Both the position numbers and the translations under genes were made by a program. 64,000 nucleotides of DNA from Octopus vulgaris (Eukaryota), in contig OX597822.1 of the NCBI GenBank assembly GCA_951406725.2, forward strand, positions 108,128,001-108,192,000, written 5' to 3'. The notes under the pieces were generated by a model. It searched no databases and was not told where the DNA came from. It was given only the letters and a program-made list of their open reading frames with translations. Below, piece after piece: positions 4,611 through 59,520 of this stretch (position 1 is its first letter; each line of letters opens with the position of its first letter).

Positions 4611-4846
4611 GGATTATTGACGTGAAATTTAAAATCGAAATCAAATAAAACTTACTTTACTTTGGAAAATTTGTGTGCAGCGGGAAGAGTAAAAAAAGTC
4701 GTGATTATGGATTGTACTTTGCATAACATGCTACAATGTAAGAGAAGGCTTATTTTCTTCATTGATTTTACTCTGTATATGTAAGTTGTGATAATCAAAA
4801 ATTGATAACTTTTAGGTATATTTTTCTGTAAAATAATATTAGATTA

Positions 4847-5303
4847 GTATACTAGCCATCTCAATATGGCTAACCACTAAGGGTGGGTGTTACTGTAGCT
4901 TTTAGCCCCAGGAGATCATCGTCTCGTTCAGATATTTATTATTGCTTGCAGGCAGTTTTTCGAAATCAGTGACGGTGGCTCCTGGGAAAACCATTAAATA
5001 GATATTTGCAAACACGTCTCTCTTCATCGAAAACCGGTGATTACCGTACGTTGACAAGAAGCAAATACCTCGAAACTGCAGTCCGTGCGTATCACTTAGG
5101 TTTGTGAGAGAGGGATGACCTCCCTTTGCAAATATCATAAGGGCACAGAATGTGTGCCTACAGCCAGCTGAAGACGATGATCTCCTGGGGCTAAAAGCTA
5201 CAGTAACATCCACCCTTAGTGGTTAGCCATATTGAGATGGCTAGTATACTTTACGTTGTCGAGCAGTTACTGTTTACCCCCCGTTCATAGATTTATTATT
5301 GCT
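4847..5303 (+). mobile_element. Non-autonomous PLE/retrozyme-like element with 79-bp inverted segment, HHR and 13-bp TSD
   Basis: Inverted repeat 4846-4924 / 5172-5250 with one mismatch. Terminal direct repeat cgttca..atttattattgctt at about 4925-4947 and 5282-5303. Flanking taatattagatta at 4834-4846 and 5304-5316. Confidence 0.8.
5045..5089 (+). ncRNA. Type I hammerhead ribozyme, U3-A8 core variant
   Basis: cgtacg TTGACAA gaagcaaatacctc GAAA ctgcag TC cgtgcg: stem I 6 bp, palindromic stem III ACUGCAGU, GUC cleavage triplet. Stem II is imperfect. Confidence 0.75.
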
Positions 5304-5804
5304 TAATATTAGATTAATTTCGACATAATCTTTGCAGCTTCTGTGAATCTTATTAGATTATATATTTGCATCTATGATCTATAACTCTACTGAGTACTTT
5401 AAATTATTTCCATAAAAGATATAATACCGCCAGTTGACGGTAACTATCCCGAGGATTACGGTTTCGTTATCAGATGCATCTGAACGCTTTTTACAGTAGA
5501 ATTTGTTCATTTACTGTTCGGAAGATACTTTCTGATGTAATAGGACACATTTTGCCTTCATAATACGGATTAGAATCTGGCAATTTCTGAGTTTTGTCTC
5601 ACTTTATTTAACCATCTGCAGGTATCTATTATAATATATATATATATATGTATATATGTTGAGCATTTTGTGCTCACGAAACTCACAAATGGTTATTACG
5701 ATGCACACCCACTCACTCATATCTACATATATAGATACAAGAAACATACATGCATACATATATATGTGCATGTGTATGTTTGTGTCTTAATATATATATA
5801 TGTC

Positions 5805-7084: not shown

Positions 7085-7454
<370 letters not shown>

Positions 7455-26654: not shown

Positions 26655-27020
26655 TTAATATTCCTGGCCCAGGGTGTTCAAACTTTGTCTAAATTTTTTG
26701 ATGAAATAAAGTTCTTTATTTTGGCGTTGCGTGAAGGTTACGCTCTCACTGAATTTGTAAAGTGGGTAAGTTGTAAATTTCGGATTTACATTTGCAGAAC
26801 ATCTATCTATGTGTCCGATGACCGGTATTTTCCGGTATTCAGGGTTTCTAATTTGTGATTTATGCACCGCCATCCTGTTACGTAAGCTTTTTTTTGTATG
26901 GCCTATATACTGCCTATTGCAGCCTGCGCATGTTAAGACGTAAATTAAGTTTTCTGATACACAGGTGAAGTTTGCTCTAATGGTGACGACGTGCTTCCAG
27001 TTTCCTTCTACCAAGTCCAT
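26655..27020 (-). pseudogene. PLE GIY-YIG endonuclease domain (5'-truncated)
   Basis: FTCVSENLIYVLTCAGCNRQYIGHTKKSLRNRMAVH...RQNKELYFIKKF..LN has the GIY-YIG signature with CxxC typical of PLEs. Confidence 0.9.
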
Positions 27021-27360: not shown

Positions 27361-29935
27361 TATAACTTAGATAACTTAGATATGTTTCAACCAAAGATTG
27401 GTCCAGGCCATGTCTTACTTAATAGCACCACCTGATAGGATTATCTGAATCCTGTTTAAGTCAAGTTTTGTTTATGGTACACTCAAGTAGTGAGTTTGTG
27501 TTGGGTGAGTTGTATCCAATTATGGGTGGCTTATCTGGTATTCCTTGAAGGAATCTATCCAGACTCTGTTTAAAGTTGATGGGATCCTTTTCCTCTTTGA
27601 TCTCCCTCGGGACCATGTTAAATAGGGCAGGGCCTGTTGAGGAAAAGAAATTATGTTGCATTGTACAAGTATGCTGTGATCTTGAATTGGGCAGGGGACG
27701 TATGGTCCGTGGTCCCAGTCTTTGATGAACCTTGAAGCTAATGTTCAGGTCGTTTGGGCAAAGTTGGCGGTATATTCTCCACATCGTGCAAAAGATGTAC
27801 CGCTCACGGCGACGCTGATGAGAGTAGAGTTTCAAGGCTTTAAGGCGATCCCAATAATCGAGAGCAGCCATGCCTTCAATTCGATTAGTGAGTGCCCTCT
27901 GGGGTGATTCAATCCTCGAGATGTTTTGTCTTGTATGGGGAGACAACAGTGGGAGGAGAAAAGTGGTATGATGACACCTTGTTCTCTGGACCGGAAAGTT
28001 CTTAAGATCCAGGAACTCATCCTACGAGCTATATCGACCTTATTGTTGATGTGTGCACTCCAACTGAGATCGTCATCAACAATTACACCCAGGTCTCTGA
28101 TATTGTTAGAGGCTGTGAGCGGTTCCCCTGAAGGAAGAGAGTATGGCTGTTTTAGTGAGGAATTTCTTCCAAAATGTATCAGCTCAAATTTTCCATCGTT
28201 CAGTTGCATTTTGTTTCTGTCTGCCCATTGACTCACAGCATATAGATCAGACTGGAGTTGAGTTCGGTCTGCTTCTTCATTGACTATTTGCTGGAGCTTA
28301 GTGTCATCAGCAAATATTTTCAATTTGCAGTAATGTACGACACTGGAAAGGTCGTTTATGTAAATTATAAAGAGTAGCGGGCCCAAGACAGTCCCCTAGG
28401 GGACACCGCTGGTGACCTTTGCTGGGCTTGAGTGTACTCCATCACCTACAGCATGTTGTGTTATATTCGCCAGGAAATACTTAATTCAGTGTAGAACTTT
28501 TCCACGAATTCCAACATTTGCCAATTTTGAGAGTAGGATATTATGGTCTACCCTGTCGAACGCTTTACTGAAGTCAAGATATATGACATCAGAGTTTGAA
28601 CCTGTTCTCAAGGCTTTGAGTATATATTCAATGTGGTGTAAGAGCTGTATTAGACAGTCCCTGCCACAGCGAAAGCCATGCTGATTTGCATTTAGGAGTT
28701 TGTGGGTCTCCAGGAAGTCAGCTATCCTTGATCTTAACACTCTTTCAAACACTTTAATGATGTGGGAGGTGAGTGAGATTGGGCGATAGTTGAGTGCGAG
28801 GGATCTGTTTCCCTGTTTGAAAACCGGGATGACTGACTGTGATAGAAACTGTTTTGGTATATAACCTGCGTCTAACGAATTTGTCGAGAGGATGGTCAGA
28901 GGGACTGCAAATTGGTGTCTACATTCCTTCAGGAGACTAGCGGGGAATCTATCAGGGCCTACGGCAGAGTAATGTTTGACCTCATTTATTGCTGCTACGA
29001 TGTCGGTGGCAGTGAAGGTTATGTCTGAGATTTTATGTTGGGAATCAACTTCGTTCGCTTCTCTTACGTCGATATCAGTGGGAACACTAAAGACAGAGCA
29101 GTATTGTTTCTGCAGTATTTCTGCCATTTCTTTAGCATCGTGTTGGGGAATGCCGTTATCATCAATCAATGGCCCAATGGGTGAGACAGTGGTTCTATGC
29201 TTATTTGCATAAGAATAGAACACTTTTGGGTTCTGTTTTATGTTTTTGATTATCCACTGTTCCTCCACAGCTGTTTGATTTTCAATGGAGGTTTTCATAT
29301 CGGTCTGCAGATGAAGTTTTTCCAGCTCTAGCCTTTTCATTGTTGTTGAATGTGGATGTTGTATGTGGGAATATTTTAATTGGTTGATTTTTTTTATTGA
29401 GTCTTTTGATGTACCTGATGAGTGTTTGTTTTTCTTTTTAGGGAGCGGGTTTCTGTTTGTGCTAGTAGATTTTGTGGGAGCGTGTTTAGAGCATGTATGG
29501 GTGACACTGTTCACAAAGTTCTGCTATGCGGTCTCAATATGGGTGGAATTGTGAGTAAAAGACCAGTCTATGAAAGACAGATCCTTTCTGATTGCTCTCC
29601 AGTCCGCTTTGTGGACGTTTATGTTATCAAATGAGTGCCATGGAGTGGGATTGGCTGGTATGGTTTTTATATGTCGGGAATTAACATTGCAGAGTACCAT
29701 GTCATGGTCTGAGAGGAGAGTTTTTCCAACTGAAATACTGTGAACGAAGCTAGAGTGATTGGTCAATACCAGATCCAAGACCGTTTTATTCCGTCTCGTT
29801 GGTTCGAGCACTAGCTGACTTAGGAAGAATTCATCCATTAGATTAAAGAGCAGTTCTGCTGCTGCTCTGTCTGATGTAGAGCATTTGCTTAACTTCAGAG
29901 CATTTGTGGGCCAGTTCACATGAGGGAGGTTTAAA
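27361..29935 (-). mobile_element. 5'-truncated CR1-like LINE (APE C-terminus and RT), frameshifted, inserted in (TA)n
   Basis: LDLVLTN, SDH (endonuclease); NYRPISLTS, QHGFR, YLDFSKAFDRVDH, GPLLFIIYIND, FADDTK (RT); 3' tail (TATCTAAGT)n. Confidence 0.95.
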
Positions 29936-29982
29936 TGTATATATATATATATACTTACGTATATATATTTACATATATATGA

Positions 29983-30039
<57 letters not shown>

Positions 30040-30066
30040 CATATATATGTATATATATATATATAT

Positions 30067-30103
<37 letters not shown>

Positions 30104-30144
30104 GTACACACACACACACACATATATATATACATATATATATA

Positions 30145-30201
<57 letters not shown>

Positions 30202-30596
30202 TAGGTGTACGAACGCAAATTTTTTACTGACATTGATAAGAGATGTATGCTGATAGACAAGGAATTCCCAAATCAGTTACTGCTGTGTCAATAGATACTA
30301 CAATTCATGAATGTACTTTAAAAATACTAAGATTTTCTTTAAAGAATTTGAACGTTATGTGGTTTTTGCAAAGATTTGTTTTCAGTATATTTTCCATATT
30401 TACGCTATACACTCTATCTACACACATGAGCAGAAGCGTGAGTTACTGTCTAGGTGTGTATTTAACAGTTTAGAATTGTTATAGAAATTCAGTCTTGAAA
30501 TGGCAGTTATTATTTACTGAACATTTGCTCTTAGTGCAATACAATCGGTCACAGGGTGAAAATGTAAATAGATGTGAAGCAAAGCAGCAGTAGCGC

Positions 30597-38009: not shown

Positions 38010-38950
38010 CACAGCCGGTTTGTGGTTGCCGTGAAAACGATGATGGAACAAATCGAGCAGGGAATCAAGTTAAGAGTTATGTCCCTTGGTATCAAAACAA
38101 CATCTCTTACGGGAGAGGGGTGTTAGGTTGTTGCCGGTTGGACAAAGTCTTCTGGGAAAGAGTGTGTGGGAAGTGAGGGTATTTTTAAGGTTAGTTTTCT
38201 TATGGAAATGGAATGTGCGTAGCGATACTACATGTATGGTGGTGGTGGTATGTTCGTGAATGTGTTGCCTTTCTTTTGTGTTTTGGTTAAATTCGTGAGG
38301 CATTTATGTATGGATGAGATGTGTGTAGGGGTATAATATGTGCGGGCGCTAATATTGGCAGTCATGGAAAAGTCTATTGCGTAGGTGGCCGTCGTACAGA
38401 GCCGTGTGTGTTTATTTGTGGGAACGTTAGTGTATGATCTGGTCAAACTCTTTGCTGGACTCCATAATACCTGGGTCCCCCACCAATACCTGCAAGTCCG
38501 GCATATATTTGACCAGAACATACACTAACTCACCCAGAAAAACACACACGCTCCAGCACTGCGGACACCCACCCAATAGCATTTTTACCACTACACCTAA
38601 TATAAGGTCGCACAAATATTGTATCCCTACACGCACCGCATGCATATATAAATGACCAAAGCTTTTAAACAAAACTTAAAAGAATGGAAACACACTAAGG
38701 AACATAGATGTATATATCACCGTCCATCACCGCAAAGGCTATACATATCGTACCACTAGATACATTCTATTTCCACAAGAACACTTACCTTAAAGACTCA
38801 CACATGTTGCACACTCTCTTTTCTAGAAAACTCTTGCTGACATGCAACAAAACTACACCCAGAAACGATGTTTTTGATACCAATGGACTTCACTTTTAAC
38901 TTAATCTGCTGCTTGATTCATTTCAACAACATTTTCATAGAAATAGCAGC
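38010..38950. repeat. Long imperfect inverted repeat (about 450-bp arms, about 30-nt loop centred near 38478)
   Basis: gttagtgtatgatctggtcaaa..gctggact pairs with agtccggc..tttgaccagaacatacactaac; ttggtatcaaaa pairs with ttttgataccaa. Confidence 0.8.
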
Positions 38951-45640: not shown

Positions 45641-47978
45641 CATAAAATGGTTGTGCTACTATGTTCAAACCTTTTCTTAATTAGCTTCAAGGAAGGACAC
45701 ACTAACAATAGCAATTTTACTTTATCTCTAAGTGGATATTTATCTCGTTAATTAACCCATAATTCATTATAACATCTTTTCGAAATAACAGCTGAATTTT
45801 AAGCTTAATTTGCAAGTTAATTAGTTTAACAAAAGATACAACCGCAAAAGTGTCTATCTACCTTTATCTGAAGTATATTTATAAACAACTCGTGTATTCT
45901 TATCTAAAAAATGTTAAACCTATTTACTAAGTCATTCTTGAATGCTACAATTTAATAGTATCATAAACGATTATTGCTAAGGCGTAAATTATATTTGCTG
46001 CAAATGCTTTTAGACTGGGAAACTAATAGATGAAATTGGTTACTATGTTCTTGAGATTTTGCTTATAAATGTCATTTTTACTTTTGATTTAATAAACGGT
46101 ATCTTGTTTACGTAGACGAAGGCTGACTTAATTTAATTTGGTAAAAGTACCAAAAATCTAAATAATGCCTGTAGTTTCTCTGTTCAAGATTCGACTAGAC
46201 GTACACTGACCTCAATTCTTTCGCTCTTTATTATATCTGTAGTTTAAAGCACTGGTGTTCGTTCCAATCTCAATCACATTTCGTCTGCGAATTTTGTTGC
46301 ACATAATGCATCTAATAATCAACCACTTTTGCATGTCGGTTTTGCAATTCATTTTACCGAACATTTGAATAGAAATAACCGATACTATGGAGAAATCGCT
46401 CATTATTTCAAAAGACAACCACTAAAGATATATGTAAGGCGTAGCAAACCAATAATTCAATTCGATAGGAAATTTGAGTTCTTGTGAAAGTTTATCTAAC
46501 TTCTAAGGGCTTTCCTGTCGGTAAAACATCACAGACATTAGTATATATTTTCATATATAATTCTAAAATATTCACTTCCCTGTTTTAAGTTGTAAGGAAA
46601 CGTGTTTTTGGTATGTTGGCCAACATCTTTACTATATCAAGAGACCACTATTTTTACATGTAGAATATCGTGGTGTTCACGCATTTCGAATGTGGCGTGA
46701 GTGTGGAGAATTTACAAGAAGGTTAAGTCGGGTACTCAGACAACATTTTTAATTAAAATATTAACAGAATTGTCTGTGATGCTGATGAAACATTCATAAC
46801 TAAGTTCCAGTTCGAAAAAGCTAATTTAAAATAAAAATGTGTATAGAAAACATTTCTGATATAAAATAATTTCAATTAGTCCCAACAGAGATTGATTCCA
46901 GACTGCTCAATCACTGAGAAGCTATGTGACGTCTTAACCTCCGGTTAGTGGCACTCGTAAAGAAAACCAATCCGGACTACGATAAATTTCTTAATACTCA
47001 TATAATCAGTAGAACGCCGGATTCATAAAATAGATTAGTTTAATTAATTAAAATCACGAGTGTTGTCTCAATTGCATTTATTGACTAGAATTAGTCATTA
47101 AGATTGTAATTTCCATTAATTAAATTTCTCGGCTAACTACGTGCAAGTAAAATAGCAATGCGTTTACAATACCGACAATATTTAGCGCTATTCATTCTGA
47201 GTGCAAATTCGAGTTCGGTATTATTTACATTCGTTTTCACTTGGATTATTTAAGGCAAGAAATGGAATGTTGTTACCAGTTTCCTTTCTTGTCCCAACAA
47301 CAAGAACTAATGATCATCACGGAAAAATTAACAACAGCTTACACCTTAATAGTATGAATGTGGATGAAATACACCTTTATAAACACTTTCATGCAATCTG
47401 TAATAATACAAAGGGCAGCAGAAAGTCCTCCTACGATTTACATGTCCATGAATGTAGGCAGGTAGTAAAAATGTCTTCGAGGAGATGCTGGCTTATAGGT
47501 TTTGTTTTTCTAGTAATTATTTTGACTTCTACCGGTGCATAGCACATATTTGCTGTTGAAACATTTGTTATAACGGTGAGACTGATATCTTTTTTTTTTT
47601 TTTGCCAGAACCTGTATGTGTCCCTAGGTAACTGTGTGCTCATAATTTGGAATTAAGTAGACATTTTTTTTCAGTCCCGTTTATATTAATTAATGCAATC
47701 GTATTATTCATTTCTGCTGTTAGTTTTAGGACCTACGCCTCTTATTTTCTATTATGTTTTAGAACATTTAAGTCGTTGCAGACCTAAGTCGTCTGCGCCA
47801 CTAATGAATACAATATAGAGATATTCTTTAATTTCAATTTATATAAACTTTAAACATAGACACATATAGACAGACACAGATGATATATATATATGTGTGT
47901 ATATGTATGTGTAAATATATATATATATGCCCACTGTGTGTGTCCTCACATGTATACATATATATATATATATTGATA

Positions 47979-48507
47979 CCCCAGAGGGCACTCACTAAAC
48001 GAATTGAAGGCATGGCTGCTCTCGATTATTGGGATCTGCTTAAAGCCTTGAAACTTTACTCCCTCCAGCGTCGCCGTGAGCGGTACATCATTTGTACGAT
48101 GTGGAAAATATACCGCCAATTTTGCCCAAACGACCTAAACATTAGCTTCAAGGGTAATCCAAGACTTGAACCACGGGCTATACGTCCCCTGCCCAATTCA
48201 AGATCACAACATACATGTACACTGCAACATAATTTCTTTTCCTCAACAGGCCCTTCCCTATTTAACATTGTCCCGAGGGAGATCAAAGAGGAAAAGGATC
48301 CCATCAACTTTAAACAGAGTCTAGATAGATTCCTTCAAAGAATACCAGATAAGCCACCCATAATTGGATACAACTCACCCAACAAGAACTCCCTACTTGA
48401 ACAAAACTTGACTTAAACAGGACTCGAATAATCCTATCAGGTGGTGCTATTAAGTTAGACATGGCCTGGACCAATCTTTGGTCGAAACATATCTAAGTTT
48501 ATCTAAG

Positions 48508-51867: not shown

Positions 51868-51988
51868 CAACGGGAAGGTCTACGAAAATAAACAAAATAC
51901 GAAGGCAGGTGGAGTACAAACAAACAAATGTATTAGTATGGCGCTCAGGAATAGAAATAGAACAAGTCTTTTACGTTTCGAGCCTACG

Positions 51989-51990
<2 letters not shown>
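51868..51990 (-). mobile_element. Truncated copy of the 43185 family (3' half of HHR) between (TA)n tracts
   Basis: Minus strand gagcgtaggctcGAAAcgTAaaagact...cctgagcgccatactaataca. Confidence 0.8.
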
Positions 51991-52043
<53 letters not shown>

Positions 52044-52049
<6 letters not shown>

Positions 52050-52674
52050 TATAAGCAAGGTCTACCGAAAGTTTTTCTAAAGCCAATATACTGAAATCCA
52101 CGTTTAATCCACTTGCTACAGAAAGTTGAACTGAAATTCGGGCAACTATACCTTTGGAACACTTAAATTCCGTTATCTCAATATTGAATCAATTTCGGAA
52201 TTAACACCATAAGTGTCGTTCGTCTTCAGTTAAGCTTACGAGAGAATATAAGTGAGATACTCATATGTGCCCCTGGAAAACAGCGGAAGCGAATAACACA
52301 AGCACATCTGAGTAACCCCGTTATATCCCAAAATAAATGTTCTTAGGTTAAGTCTCAGAACAACCTGTTGACTTGCCGCCGCCACATATTGTAGTGGTTA
52401 CAAGTCCCCCTGCAGCAAGCAGCAATTAGTGTACTGCTATTAAAAGGAATGTAGCCTTTTTCTCTACAGAAAAAAACTCCATCAGGAATTGTGGCAGTAT
52501 ATTAAAAGAACCTTTACGGTTAAATATTATAAATATAAGTATATTGGCTTTAGAAAAATAGCCCTTGCTTATAAGATATTTATAATTTTTAACCGTAAAG
52601 GTTCTTTTAATGTACTGCCACAATTCCTGATGGAGTTTTTTTCTGTAGAGAAAAAGGCTACATCCCTTTTAATA

Positions 52675-52675
<1 letters not shown>
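52044..52675 (-). mobile_element. PLE/retrozyme-like element: about 490-nt monomer plus inverted segment spanning the monomer junction
   Basis: 100-bp inverted arms at 52437-52536 and 52576-52675; the loop is the reverse complement of 52044-52092; (TA)n on both sides. Confidence 0.82.
52177..52234 (-). ncRNA. Type I hammerhead ribozyme motif
   Basis: cttaa CTGAAGA cgaacgacac ttat ggtgttaattcc GAAA ttgattcaa TA ttgag; the closing pair of stem II is C/C. Confidence 0.72.
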
Positions 52676-52717
<42 letters not shown>

Positions 52718-53671
52718 GTGTGTGTGTGTGTGTGTGTGTATATTTGTGTAAATGTGTATAGAAAAATATATCAACTGAATAAAGTTAGCACATGGTCTGA
52801 TTTTCATTTGTTTTATTATTGGACTTAAAACAAAATTTAAAACAAAATACGATACTGAAGTGTGTTAAACATTAAAAAAATATAATGATCATCAAATTCT
52901 TCCTTTTTACCCCTTTTCAAAGACTCCAACTAATTGAATTTTTGTAATACGATTTTGACCAAACAGTATGAAGCTTAAAGCCACGGTTTGCGGGCGCACA
53001 GATATTACTGGCATAGACTCCATTTTTATTTCAACCCATCGGCTTGCGATTTACATGTAATGGTATTATGTGTGAGCAAACTTAGTTGGTTTCGATTGTT
53101 TTATTTCAATCGTTGGGAGTCTTCTATAATTTGTATATTATAATATATTGAAGGTATTTTTTTTTATTCCACATCATCAACTGGGTGTTATATTATTGTT
53201 GTTATTTCCATTCAGAACAGGTTTGAACATTTTAGGAGAAACGTTTTTCTTTTATCTTTCTTCCAATCGCACTTGTGTTATGTAGTATGTGGAAAGGAAA
53301 AATTAGAAACATTTTTCTGATCATATATTTCTATATGTTCACTCAATGGAATTTGGCGAACATTAGCGTTCCAGATCTGTTATCTGTGGACTTGTAAGCG
53401 TTCCGATAAGGCATTCCCTATCTCGCCATATGTAGTTACTCGCAATTAAGGAAATCAAATTTCTGCTTTGGCAGTTTTTCTGCATTTGTGAAAATCTGTT
53501 AATTTCTTTCTTCTTACGGATCTACAAGTATGCAAGTATGGACACGTTCCACATTTGTTATAATTACACTTGAATACTGTAATTGTTTTATCATGTTTGT
53601 TCCTGTTGGATTTTGCCTTTGTTGGTGGTTTTTATAGATTACGTGTTTGCTTCTGGCTTTGGTGTTTGGTT

Positions 53672-56175: not shown

Positions 56176-56235
<60 letters not shown>

Positions 56236-56258
56236 ATAATATGTTACAGTAATCAATA

Positions 56259-56329
56259 GTCAAGATAAAACTCTGAGTTTCAGATGCCGAAGTGGAAATC
56301 CACAACACCATCTCTTCGGTTATCTGGAC
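56259..56329 (-). ncRNA. Type I hammerhead motif (U4>C), family of 7242
   Basis: gtccagataa CCGAAGA gatg..gtgga tt tccac..catct GAAA ctcagag TT ttatcttgac. Confidence 0.6.
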
Positions 56330-56377
56330 ACATAATATTGAGGTCTCTTTCTTCCTTTTGTTATCTTACCGTTTTTA

Positions 56378-56435
<58 letters not shown>

Positions 56436-56439
<4 letters not shown>

Positions 56440-56965
56440 AAAATATAAGGAATGGCCATAATAGGATATTCGACTCAATAGAAAGAGCAGCCAAACTCAA
56501 ACCGCTAATAGTTGCAATTCTGAAATTGAAAGAGAAATAAAAACGTTTACCCCTTCATCTCTGGACGATGCATAGTTTCGGCAAACCTTAGTAAACAAAT
56601 TAATTAAATTAAATTAAATGTATTTACAACTGGCGTGCCTCGTCAGCAGAGAAGCCAAGGACGAACATATATCCACGAAGCGATGGTAAGGAAGCCTCAA
56701 GTCTATATGCTATAAATTTTCAAAATCTACCGCAATCGCGCGGTCTTCTTAGCAGCAAACACAAACTGCTGATTCAACTTCAAAAGTAGCCAAAAAATCA
56801 TCAACTAACAAATACAAGGGTGGCAAAAAATTCTTGGTCCAGAGATGAAGGGGTAAAAGTTTTTATTTCTCTTTCAATTACAGAATTGCAACTATTAGCG
56901 GTTTGAGTTTGGTTGCTCTTTCTAGTGAGTCGAATGTCCTTTTATGGCCATTCCTTATATTTGTG
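56436..56965 (-). mobile_element. PLE/retrozyme-like element with about 130-bp inverted repeat starting at the HHR cleavage triplet
   Basis: Arms at 56436-56566 and 56837-56965; 3' end abuts (TA)n. Confidence 0.85.
56558..56652 (-). ncRNA. Canonical type I hammerhead ribozyme (predicted cut between 56564 and 56563)
   Basis: tctctg CTGACGA ggca..gtaaata..tgtttac..tgcc GAAA ctatgcatcg TC cagaga. Confidence 0.9.
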
Positions 56966-57064
56966 AATGTATATTATGTAGTCTTTGACTATCTTTTCTT
57001 TCTCACTGGACCGGTGGTGGCGGAGAATGTTTTCTAGAATTTTTTGTTATCCTTGTACTTGTTA

Positions 57065-57127
<63 letters not shown>

Positions 57128-59279: not shown

Positions 59280-59520
59280 AAATATAATATGTGACAATTA
59301 TTTGGTAGCCAAACTCTGAGTTTCGGTTGCCGATGTGAAAATCCACGCCACCATCTCTTCAGTTATTCGCCCATCGGAAAAACGCTATGAAAAATGACCC
59401 TTTATACAAAGGGAAATGACTGTGTTATTTATCGCTATTTATACAAAAGCGCTATTTGAATGACCGCTAATTAAGGTAAAGCGTAAGTGCGCCTATTCAT
59501 ACGTATACATGTGCGTTTGC
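59280..59520 (-). mobile_element. HHR-bearing short repeat (family of 7085-7340); HHR 59311-59368 with stem I 3' arm deleted
   Basis: gaataa CTGAAGA gatg..caacc GAAA ctcagag TT tggc; ends in (TA)n. Confidence 0.7.

Follow-up and report, generated by a model that had tools for sequence, protein, structure and literature searches.

The window analysed here, the whole 64-kb stretch of DNA, is AT-rich and of animal type, with many microsatellites, and some of its repeats presumably resemble octopod SINEs. Between a left (TA)n target repeat at 51992 to 52047 and a right one at 52676 to 52714, neither of which has a strand, it harbors an insert made of one exact 489-nt unit and an inverted partial copy. 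The unit, hereafter called the main copy, occupies 52048 to 52536 on the minus strand, which is the sense of its ribozyme. It has a GC content of 0.37 and lacks a long ORF; all six frames are closed and none holds an RT or GIY-YIG ORF, so that the element is no autonomous EN+ PLE. L (52437 to 52536, minus strand) is the start of the unit as well as the left arm of a hairpin, and its sequence is that of the 100-nt tail. X (52048 to 52092, minus strand), delimited by alignment, is the 3' end of the main copy and would hold the first RT start site, after PMC11167929. End A, at 52048 on the minus strand, lies 134 nt 3' of the predicted ribozyme cut. The inverted copy is on the plus strand in its own sense. 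Its inner piece X' (52538 to 52575), which forms the loop of the hairpin, starts about 90 nt past the cut site, and its tail L' (52576 to 52675) is the right arm. The outer end of L' is end B (52675, plus strand), located 234 nt past the cut and a putative second RT start site. The inverted copy thus runs from about 90 nt after the cut, through A, to B, and the distance from A to B (96 to 100 nt) equals L. Read in the ribozyme sense, the insert consists of (TA)n, the inverted copy, the full 489-nt unit and (TA)n, with the two copies head to head.

Both outer ends adjoin (TA)n, which by itself is weak evidence since the window contains 47 (TA)≥10 runs. The last four nucleotides of the left repeat (ATAT, 52044 to 52047) are common to the target repeat and the junction, being also the bases that follow the 3' end of the element in its family, and the first non-TA base is 52048. 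The layout given by the first-pass annotation, made from the letters of the DNA, therefore stands, with the start of the monomer moved from 52044 to 52048 and its length set at 489 nt rather than about 490. The arms (52437 to 52536 and 52576 to 52675) are 100 nt long, 97% complementary and separated by a spacer of 39 nt. The same annotation had described the block at 52538 to 52675 as the reverse complement of L joined directly to X, and this is indeed what we found (97% for L, 52437 to 52536; X from 52048 to 52092). When 52048 to 52536 is repeated head to tail, the reverse complement of this block aligns unbroken over the end-to-start junction, with three mismatches in L and one mismatch plus a 7-nt gap in X, and it scores 245 on the repeated sequence versus 185 on the monomer alone. 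The X' match on its own scores 60, and 1000 shuffles reached 30 at best. Sequence at the L end and the junction is AT-rich and nearly palindromic, and no microhomology is visible at the inner junction. The 64-kb window contains no further copy of the 489-nt family and no tandem with at least two complete hammerheads; the run contigs considered below are too short for two units.

The ribozyme motif is a type I hammerhead on the minus strand, with C3 at 52229, GAAA from 52196 and a predicted cut after 52182. Its presence and strand are those first proposed, and its span is about 52171 to 52240 instead of 52177 to 52234. Stems I, II and III are all present: stem I has 5 bp plus an extension, stem II is long with a C opposite C at its base, and stem III is palindromic. 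An extra C follows A9, and the G10.1-C11.1 pair requires one further unpaired C before GAAA. A strict descriptor, drawn up after the motif had been seen, matched this hammerhead alone in the window and gave one match each in 4 of 100 block-shuffled windows. With Rfam, the window gave no hammerhead that reached the gathering threshold, and 51900 to 52800 gave none even at E values up to 5. The active fold of a 70-nt piece containing the motif has a free energy of -4.5 kcal/mol, 3.4 kcal/mol above the best fold (-7.9). The hammerhead variants described in PLEs (PMC4209133) are similar in that they are of type I and have a long helix II, an extra nucleotide past A9 and a palindromic helix III. 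Unlike in these variants, helix III can here close as a 4-bp monomer hairpin, and the base of helix II is a C opposite C with the G-C pair one step inward.

Other classes of element were considered and rejected. The Rfam miRNA matches at 51900 to 52800 lay far under the thresholds and reflect the hairpin and the TA runs, which speaks against a miRNA precursor. An element that bears a ribozyme and whose inverted repeats do not bound it as a whole does not suit a MITE or DNA transposon, and a plant-type LTR retrozyme is disfavored by a motif of type I and the absence of an LTR pair.

A second element, 4 kb from the first, has the same layout (56436 to 57065). Its main copy (56436 to 56834, minus strand) belongs to an unrelated family, with no detectable similarity to the first (best local score, 20), and carries a hammerhead motif, read by eye, with C3 at 56646 and a cut after 56564. 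This motif fails the strict descriptor at stem III. The inverted copy (56837 to 57065, plus strand) runs from 3 nt before the cut, through end A, which lies 128 nt past the predicted cut, and continues for another 98 to 100 nt until (TA)n. The terminal 31 nt of this inverted copy align with the start of the main copy at a score of 42, the best of 1000 shuffles being 28. The main copy is not of unit length. The total lengths of the two elements are 630 nt (second) and 628 nt (first), which may be due to chance.

The window also contains other decayed sequences. A third hammerhead-like family is represented by three decayed copies (7138 to 7340, plus strand; 59286 to 59476 and 56233 to 56380, both minus strand) that are 78 to 88% alike; each ends about 35 to 50 nt past the motif at a TA repeat, and none of the three matches the strict descriptor. 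At 26655 to 27020 (minus strand) we found a GIY-YIG remnant (Pfam PF01541, E value of 2.8e-7) whose Cys/His spacing, read by eye, is PLE-like. It is followed at 26108 to 26415 by a 102-nt repeat, present three times, whose hammerhead-like boxes are decayed.

Copies of the 489-nt family outside the window were found in contigs of sequencing runs. Among the 24 runs listed, 20 had part of the stretch and none had half of it, and 4 of the 24 had contigs aligned to the monomer. The aligned stretch started at 52046, and recurrence of the outer ends is readable for B and not for A; two of the four aligned runs are presumed to be RNA and were not used as evidence on expression. In the four runs, 182, 203, 16 and 35 contigs aligned, with many variants, showing that the family is multicopy and occurs in two organisms. 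All 29 bins of the monomer were covered in three of the runs, and the fourth, run X12, lacked cover at 52216 to 52436. At positions 52162, 52264, 52338 and 52383 every covering contig differed from the window copy, and at 52170 nearly every one did. Private change in the window copy thus amounts to about 1%, in line with the 3% between its arms. Exact-pattern scans gave no matches in metagenome contigs (two patterns) or in viral contigs (one pattern).

Among the matches listed, L continued into X in one orientation in contigs of three of the four runs. A joint from 52534 to 52046, which goes back 489 nt, was present in two of the four (one contig each, with a short side of 40 and 92 nt), and loose ends past 52536 ran into X in at least four contigs of run X1 and at least two of run X2. 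Furthermore, one contig of run X12 has (TA)12 followed by L and X and extends to 52137, all in a single orientation. End B therefore recurs beside (TA)n, and because the contig includes (TA)12, it represents a genomic copy or its read-through and not a circle. The step from the body to L was bridged, among the matches listed, by one contig (run X14), which lacks the window bases 52436 to 52438. These three bases at the body/L border (no strand) have no counterpart in this sole bridging contig and may be a joining scar of end B (n = 1). Overall, the element is a permuted 489-nt non-coding unit, and the L-X junction is normal family sequence. This is in agreement with the earlier proposal that the template, tandem or circular, was longer than one unit, as L passes directly into X in other copies and one contig bridges body and L.

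The junction does not, for all that, point to a circRNA as first suggested. A circle made by the ribozyme would be ligated at the cut (52182/52181) and not at L-X; the cut site is contiguous in the genomic copy, and the passage from L to X is an ordinary one within the unit. Since L-X stands in contigs of a DNA-type run, neither L-X junction reads nor divergent RT-PCR can prove a circRNA: such reads could equally come from genomic tandems or read-through. Two further observations were made on the contigs. A joint from 52109 to 52473 (two of four runs, short side of 20 to 22 nt) weakly suggests a short variant without the ribozyme. At 52165 to 52204, contigs of other families with very high summed depth have the same stem III/stem I part and a different stem II, from which related hammerhead families appear to be abundant in those organisms.

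We then considered the predicted folds. The arm hairpin of the 489-nt element folds at -158 kcal/mol (z of -29) and would, if the locus is transcribed, certainly form a very stable dsRNA hairpin. The minus strand of the unit is strongly self-paired (z of -5.9 to -6.1 as a linear and -8.5 as a circular molecule), compared to -3.8 and -2.6 for the plus strand; in a background of 41 of 73 clean windows, 4 of the 41 fell below a z of -5. The main copy of the second element folds weakly (z of -1.6). The folds of the two inverted arms had no structure in common at either A or B (z of -1.7 and -2.2).

The layout matches the insertion signature described for PLEs (PMC8557442, PMC3846280, PMC11167929), which the first-pass annotation had not recognised. 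PLE insertions are partial tandems, often with a 5'-truncated inverted copy at their 5' end, and they show a tail of 30 to 40 bp at one end and a bias toward microsatellites such as (TA)n (PMC8557442). Their head-to-head junctions are palindromic, for which self-priming has been proposed, and pLTRs by themselves suffice for trans-mobilisation of cargo (PMC3846280). Inverted pLTRs and 3' extensions are routine PLE features (PMC8969392), and motif pairs on opposite strands had been noted earlier (PMC4209133). The PLE protein PAc cuts and extends both target strands, with uncleaved RNA as its main substrate in vitro; RT starts internally, at two sites 3' of the ribozyme, and the tail is the stretch between them, with which the next unit begins (PMC11167929). 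Our element shares with EN+ PLEs (Penelope/Poseidon, Neptune; PMC8557442, PMC3846280) a 5'-truncated inverted copy joined head to head at its 5' end, as oriented by the ribozyme strand, with a palindromic junction and a microsatellite target in which no TSD is readable. As in those elements, the ends lie downstream of a hammerhead and a one-ended tail corresponds to the start of the next unit (PMC11167929); indeed, L' follows X' and stops at (TA)n both here and in the run X12 contig. It differs in lacking an RT/EN ORF and a direct upstream pLTR, and in having a tail of about 100 nt (96 to 100) that fails the published length of 30 to 40 bp. The non-autonomous Chlamys PLEs such as MRC1 (PMC8557442) are likewise short derivatives with a head-to-tail structure; however, these are algal, and most Chlamys elements have no canonical hammerheads.

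Similarly, the element resembles metazoan non-LTR retrozymes (PMC7229834; bioRxiv 10.64898/2026.07.22.740005), which are short, non-coding and multicopy, carry a type I hammerhead and have a GC content below 45% (37% here), with permuted or tandem copies, a self-paired fold and dispersed solo monomers. Its 489 nt exceed the 170 to 400 nt given in PMC7229834 and lie inside the 51 to 972 bp of the preprint (10.64898/2026.07.22.740005). In contrast to these retrozymes, it stands alone in (TA)n with an inverted arm joined head to head to the unit. In the available text, the word "inverted" does not occur in PMC7229834, and the preprint (10.64898/2026.07.22.740005) has it once, in the title of a reference. 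We found no description of a tail of about 100 nt or of a head-to-head layout in a retrozyme or non-autonomous PLE in the open literature; subscription papers (including the 2005 and 2006 PLE reviews), Repbase/Dfam and supplements may describe the family. The tail of about 100 nt is thus possibly a new length (n = 2 families). The surprise is nevertheless limited, since the architecture and the idea of a circle have both been published.

We consider it very probable that the element is a short non-autonomous PLE derivative of the non-LTR retrozyme type, with a unit of about 489 nt. That it was, in addition, copied from a linear template longer than one unit is the reading we prefer, with a probability of about 0.58. 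The GIY-YIG remnant in the window, to whose region the element shows no similarity, counts in favor of a PLE derivative. Against it, there is no autonomous partner linked to the 489-nt family, and the tail is not 30 to 40 bp long. The C opposite C at the base of stem II, the energy cost of the active fold and the lack of microhomology at the inner junction also argue against this reading.

In the mechanism that we propose, a PLE RT/GIY-YIG protein would move the 489-nt unit in trans. Read-through of a tandem locus would yield a linear RNA exceeding one unit in length. The endonuclease would cut a (TA)n target on both strands. One target end would prime at A, 134 nt past the ribozyme cut, and the other at B (234 nt past the cut) in the unit upstream, after which the two cDNAs would be joined head to head. 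Two target ends that prime one RNA, resulting in a head-to-head inversion, are also said to underlie the twin priming of L1, which Ostertag and Kazazian reportedly proposed in 2001. In contrast to L1, poly(A) and TSD are absent here, and the second site is apparently fixed, with an overlap of 100 nt. The doubled 100-nt arm would arise either because the A-primed cDNA reads on through L or because the B-primed cDNA folds back; the three extra bases at B hint at the latter (n = 1). On a linear read-through RNA, no displacement would be needed where the B-primed cDNA crosses A. The second element also favors a linear RNA, as its inverted arm starts within 3 nt of the cut, where a self-cleaved RNA is expected to start. 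However, these 3 nt lie upstream of the cut and would be absent from such an RNA.

The same element and PLE machinery could instead have used a closed 489-nt circRNA generated by ribozyme cleavage and ligation, a template that we regard as rather unlikely. RT primed at A would then go once round and stop at its own start, and a second priming at B would give the inverted arm. A main copy of one unit, exact to within the 4-nt ATAT overlap, is in good agreement with a circle and is not predicted by a linear template. The strong self-pairing of the minus strand is consistent with a circle as well, metazoan retrozymes produce circRNAs (PMC7229834), and circular templates were proposed in 2014 for PLE tandems and copies of more than one unit (PMC4209133). 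On the other hand, the second element has a main copy that is not of unit length and folds weakly, and both cDNAs would have to copy L and X', for which strand displacement or two templates would be needed. The L-X pairing that lowers the energy is equally possible in a linear read-through RNA, and PAc acts on uncleaved RNA in vitro (PMC11167929), the ribozyme being here predicted only. A more general form of this idea appears doubtful to us, namely, that short PLE-dependent ribozyme units would form a class in which RT starts at two fixed sites separated by about 100 nt (some 130 and 230 nt past the cut). Both ends of a single (TA)n break would then prime on ribozyme-processed RNA, here a 489-nt circle copied exactly once round.

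Explanations that dispense with this machinery fare worse. A tandem or partial tandem might have undergone a later inverted duplication by fold-back repair near an AT-rich junction, without any special RT step, and the AT-rich, near-palindromic L end and junction and the tandem-type junctions of the family would suit such an event. We nevertheless judge it improbable, as (TA)n stands exactly at both outer ends, end B lies beside (TA)n again in another copy, the same offsets recur in a second family and no tandem remnant is nearby. Even less credit goes to a one-off internal deletion of a long autonomous PLE, in which L would be the start of an ORF-bearing body and the adjacency of body and L would be private. 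In PLEs, the next unit does begin with the tail (PMC11167929), 255 letters ahead of 52457 are unlike in one diverged contig, and summed contig depth, which is no measure of copy number, is lowest just before L; yet the run X14 contig bridges body and L, all 29 bins are covered in three of four runs, and no frame holds an ORF. Least probable of all is a fold-back chimera or repeat mis-join of the library or assembly. No contig of the four runs spans the whole stretch and no change-of-strand joint is found among the joints listed, the flanks are microsatellites, and assemblies have known difficulties with such structures (PMC8557442). An artefact is disfavored by the 3 differences in 100 nt between the arms, by the substitution and 7 nt that separate X from X', and by an independent second element of the same layout. 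Folding back the monomer could not create the L-X junction. Furthermore, at one site in L and one in X, the inverted copy and not the main copy has the base of the other copies, which indicates that it was not copied from the assembled monomer.

Earlier arguments that animal retrozymes are mobilised by PLE proteins relied on co-occurrence, on ribozymes in common and on pLTR phylogeny (PMC7229834; 10.64898/2026.07.22.740005). The PLE insertion signature on a short non-coding ribozyme unit provides direct structural support for this movement, and it allows the choice between circular and linear templates to be addressed by counting in an assembly. With a tail of 100 nt in two unrelated families, the two-start-site model of PAc would be extended. 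If two fixed sites on a circle copied once round were the correct reading, every such event would result in a ready-made hairpin of long dsRNA, and genome-wide insert lengths would separate circular from linear templates for retrozyme movement.

Several other repeats were observed in the window. At 4846 to 5304, inverted arms of 79 nt (99%) lie 247 nt apart together with a 23-nt direct repeat, with no (TA)n flanks and no clear ribozyme, and 38032 to 38937 is an old palindrome of 900 nt with 67% self-complementarity. A near-identical direct duplication with a period of 535 nt occupies 24266 to 25130. A broken LINE-type RT element is located at 27461 to 30276 (minus strand), and a 93% identical 3' fragment at 47847 to 48416 (plus strand). 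Finally, a U6 snRNA match (101 bits) at 21110 to 21214 on the plus strand is directly followed at 21221 by a SINE-like repeat and may be a retrocopy.
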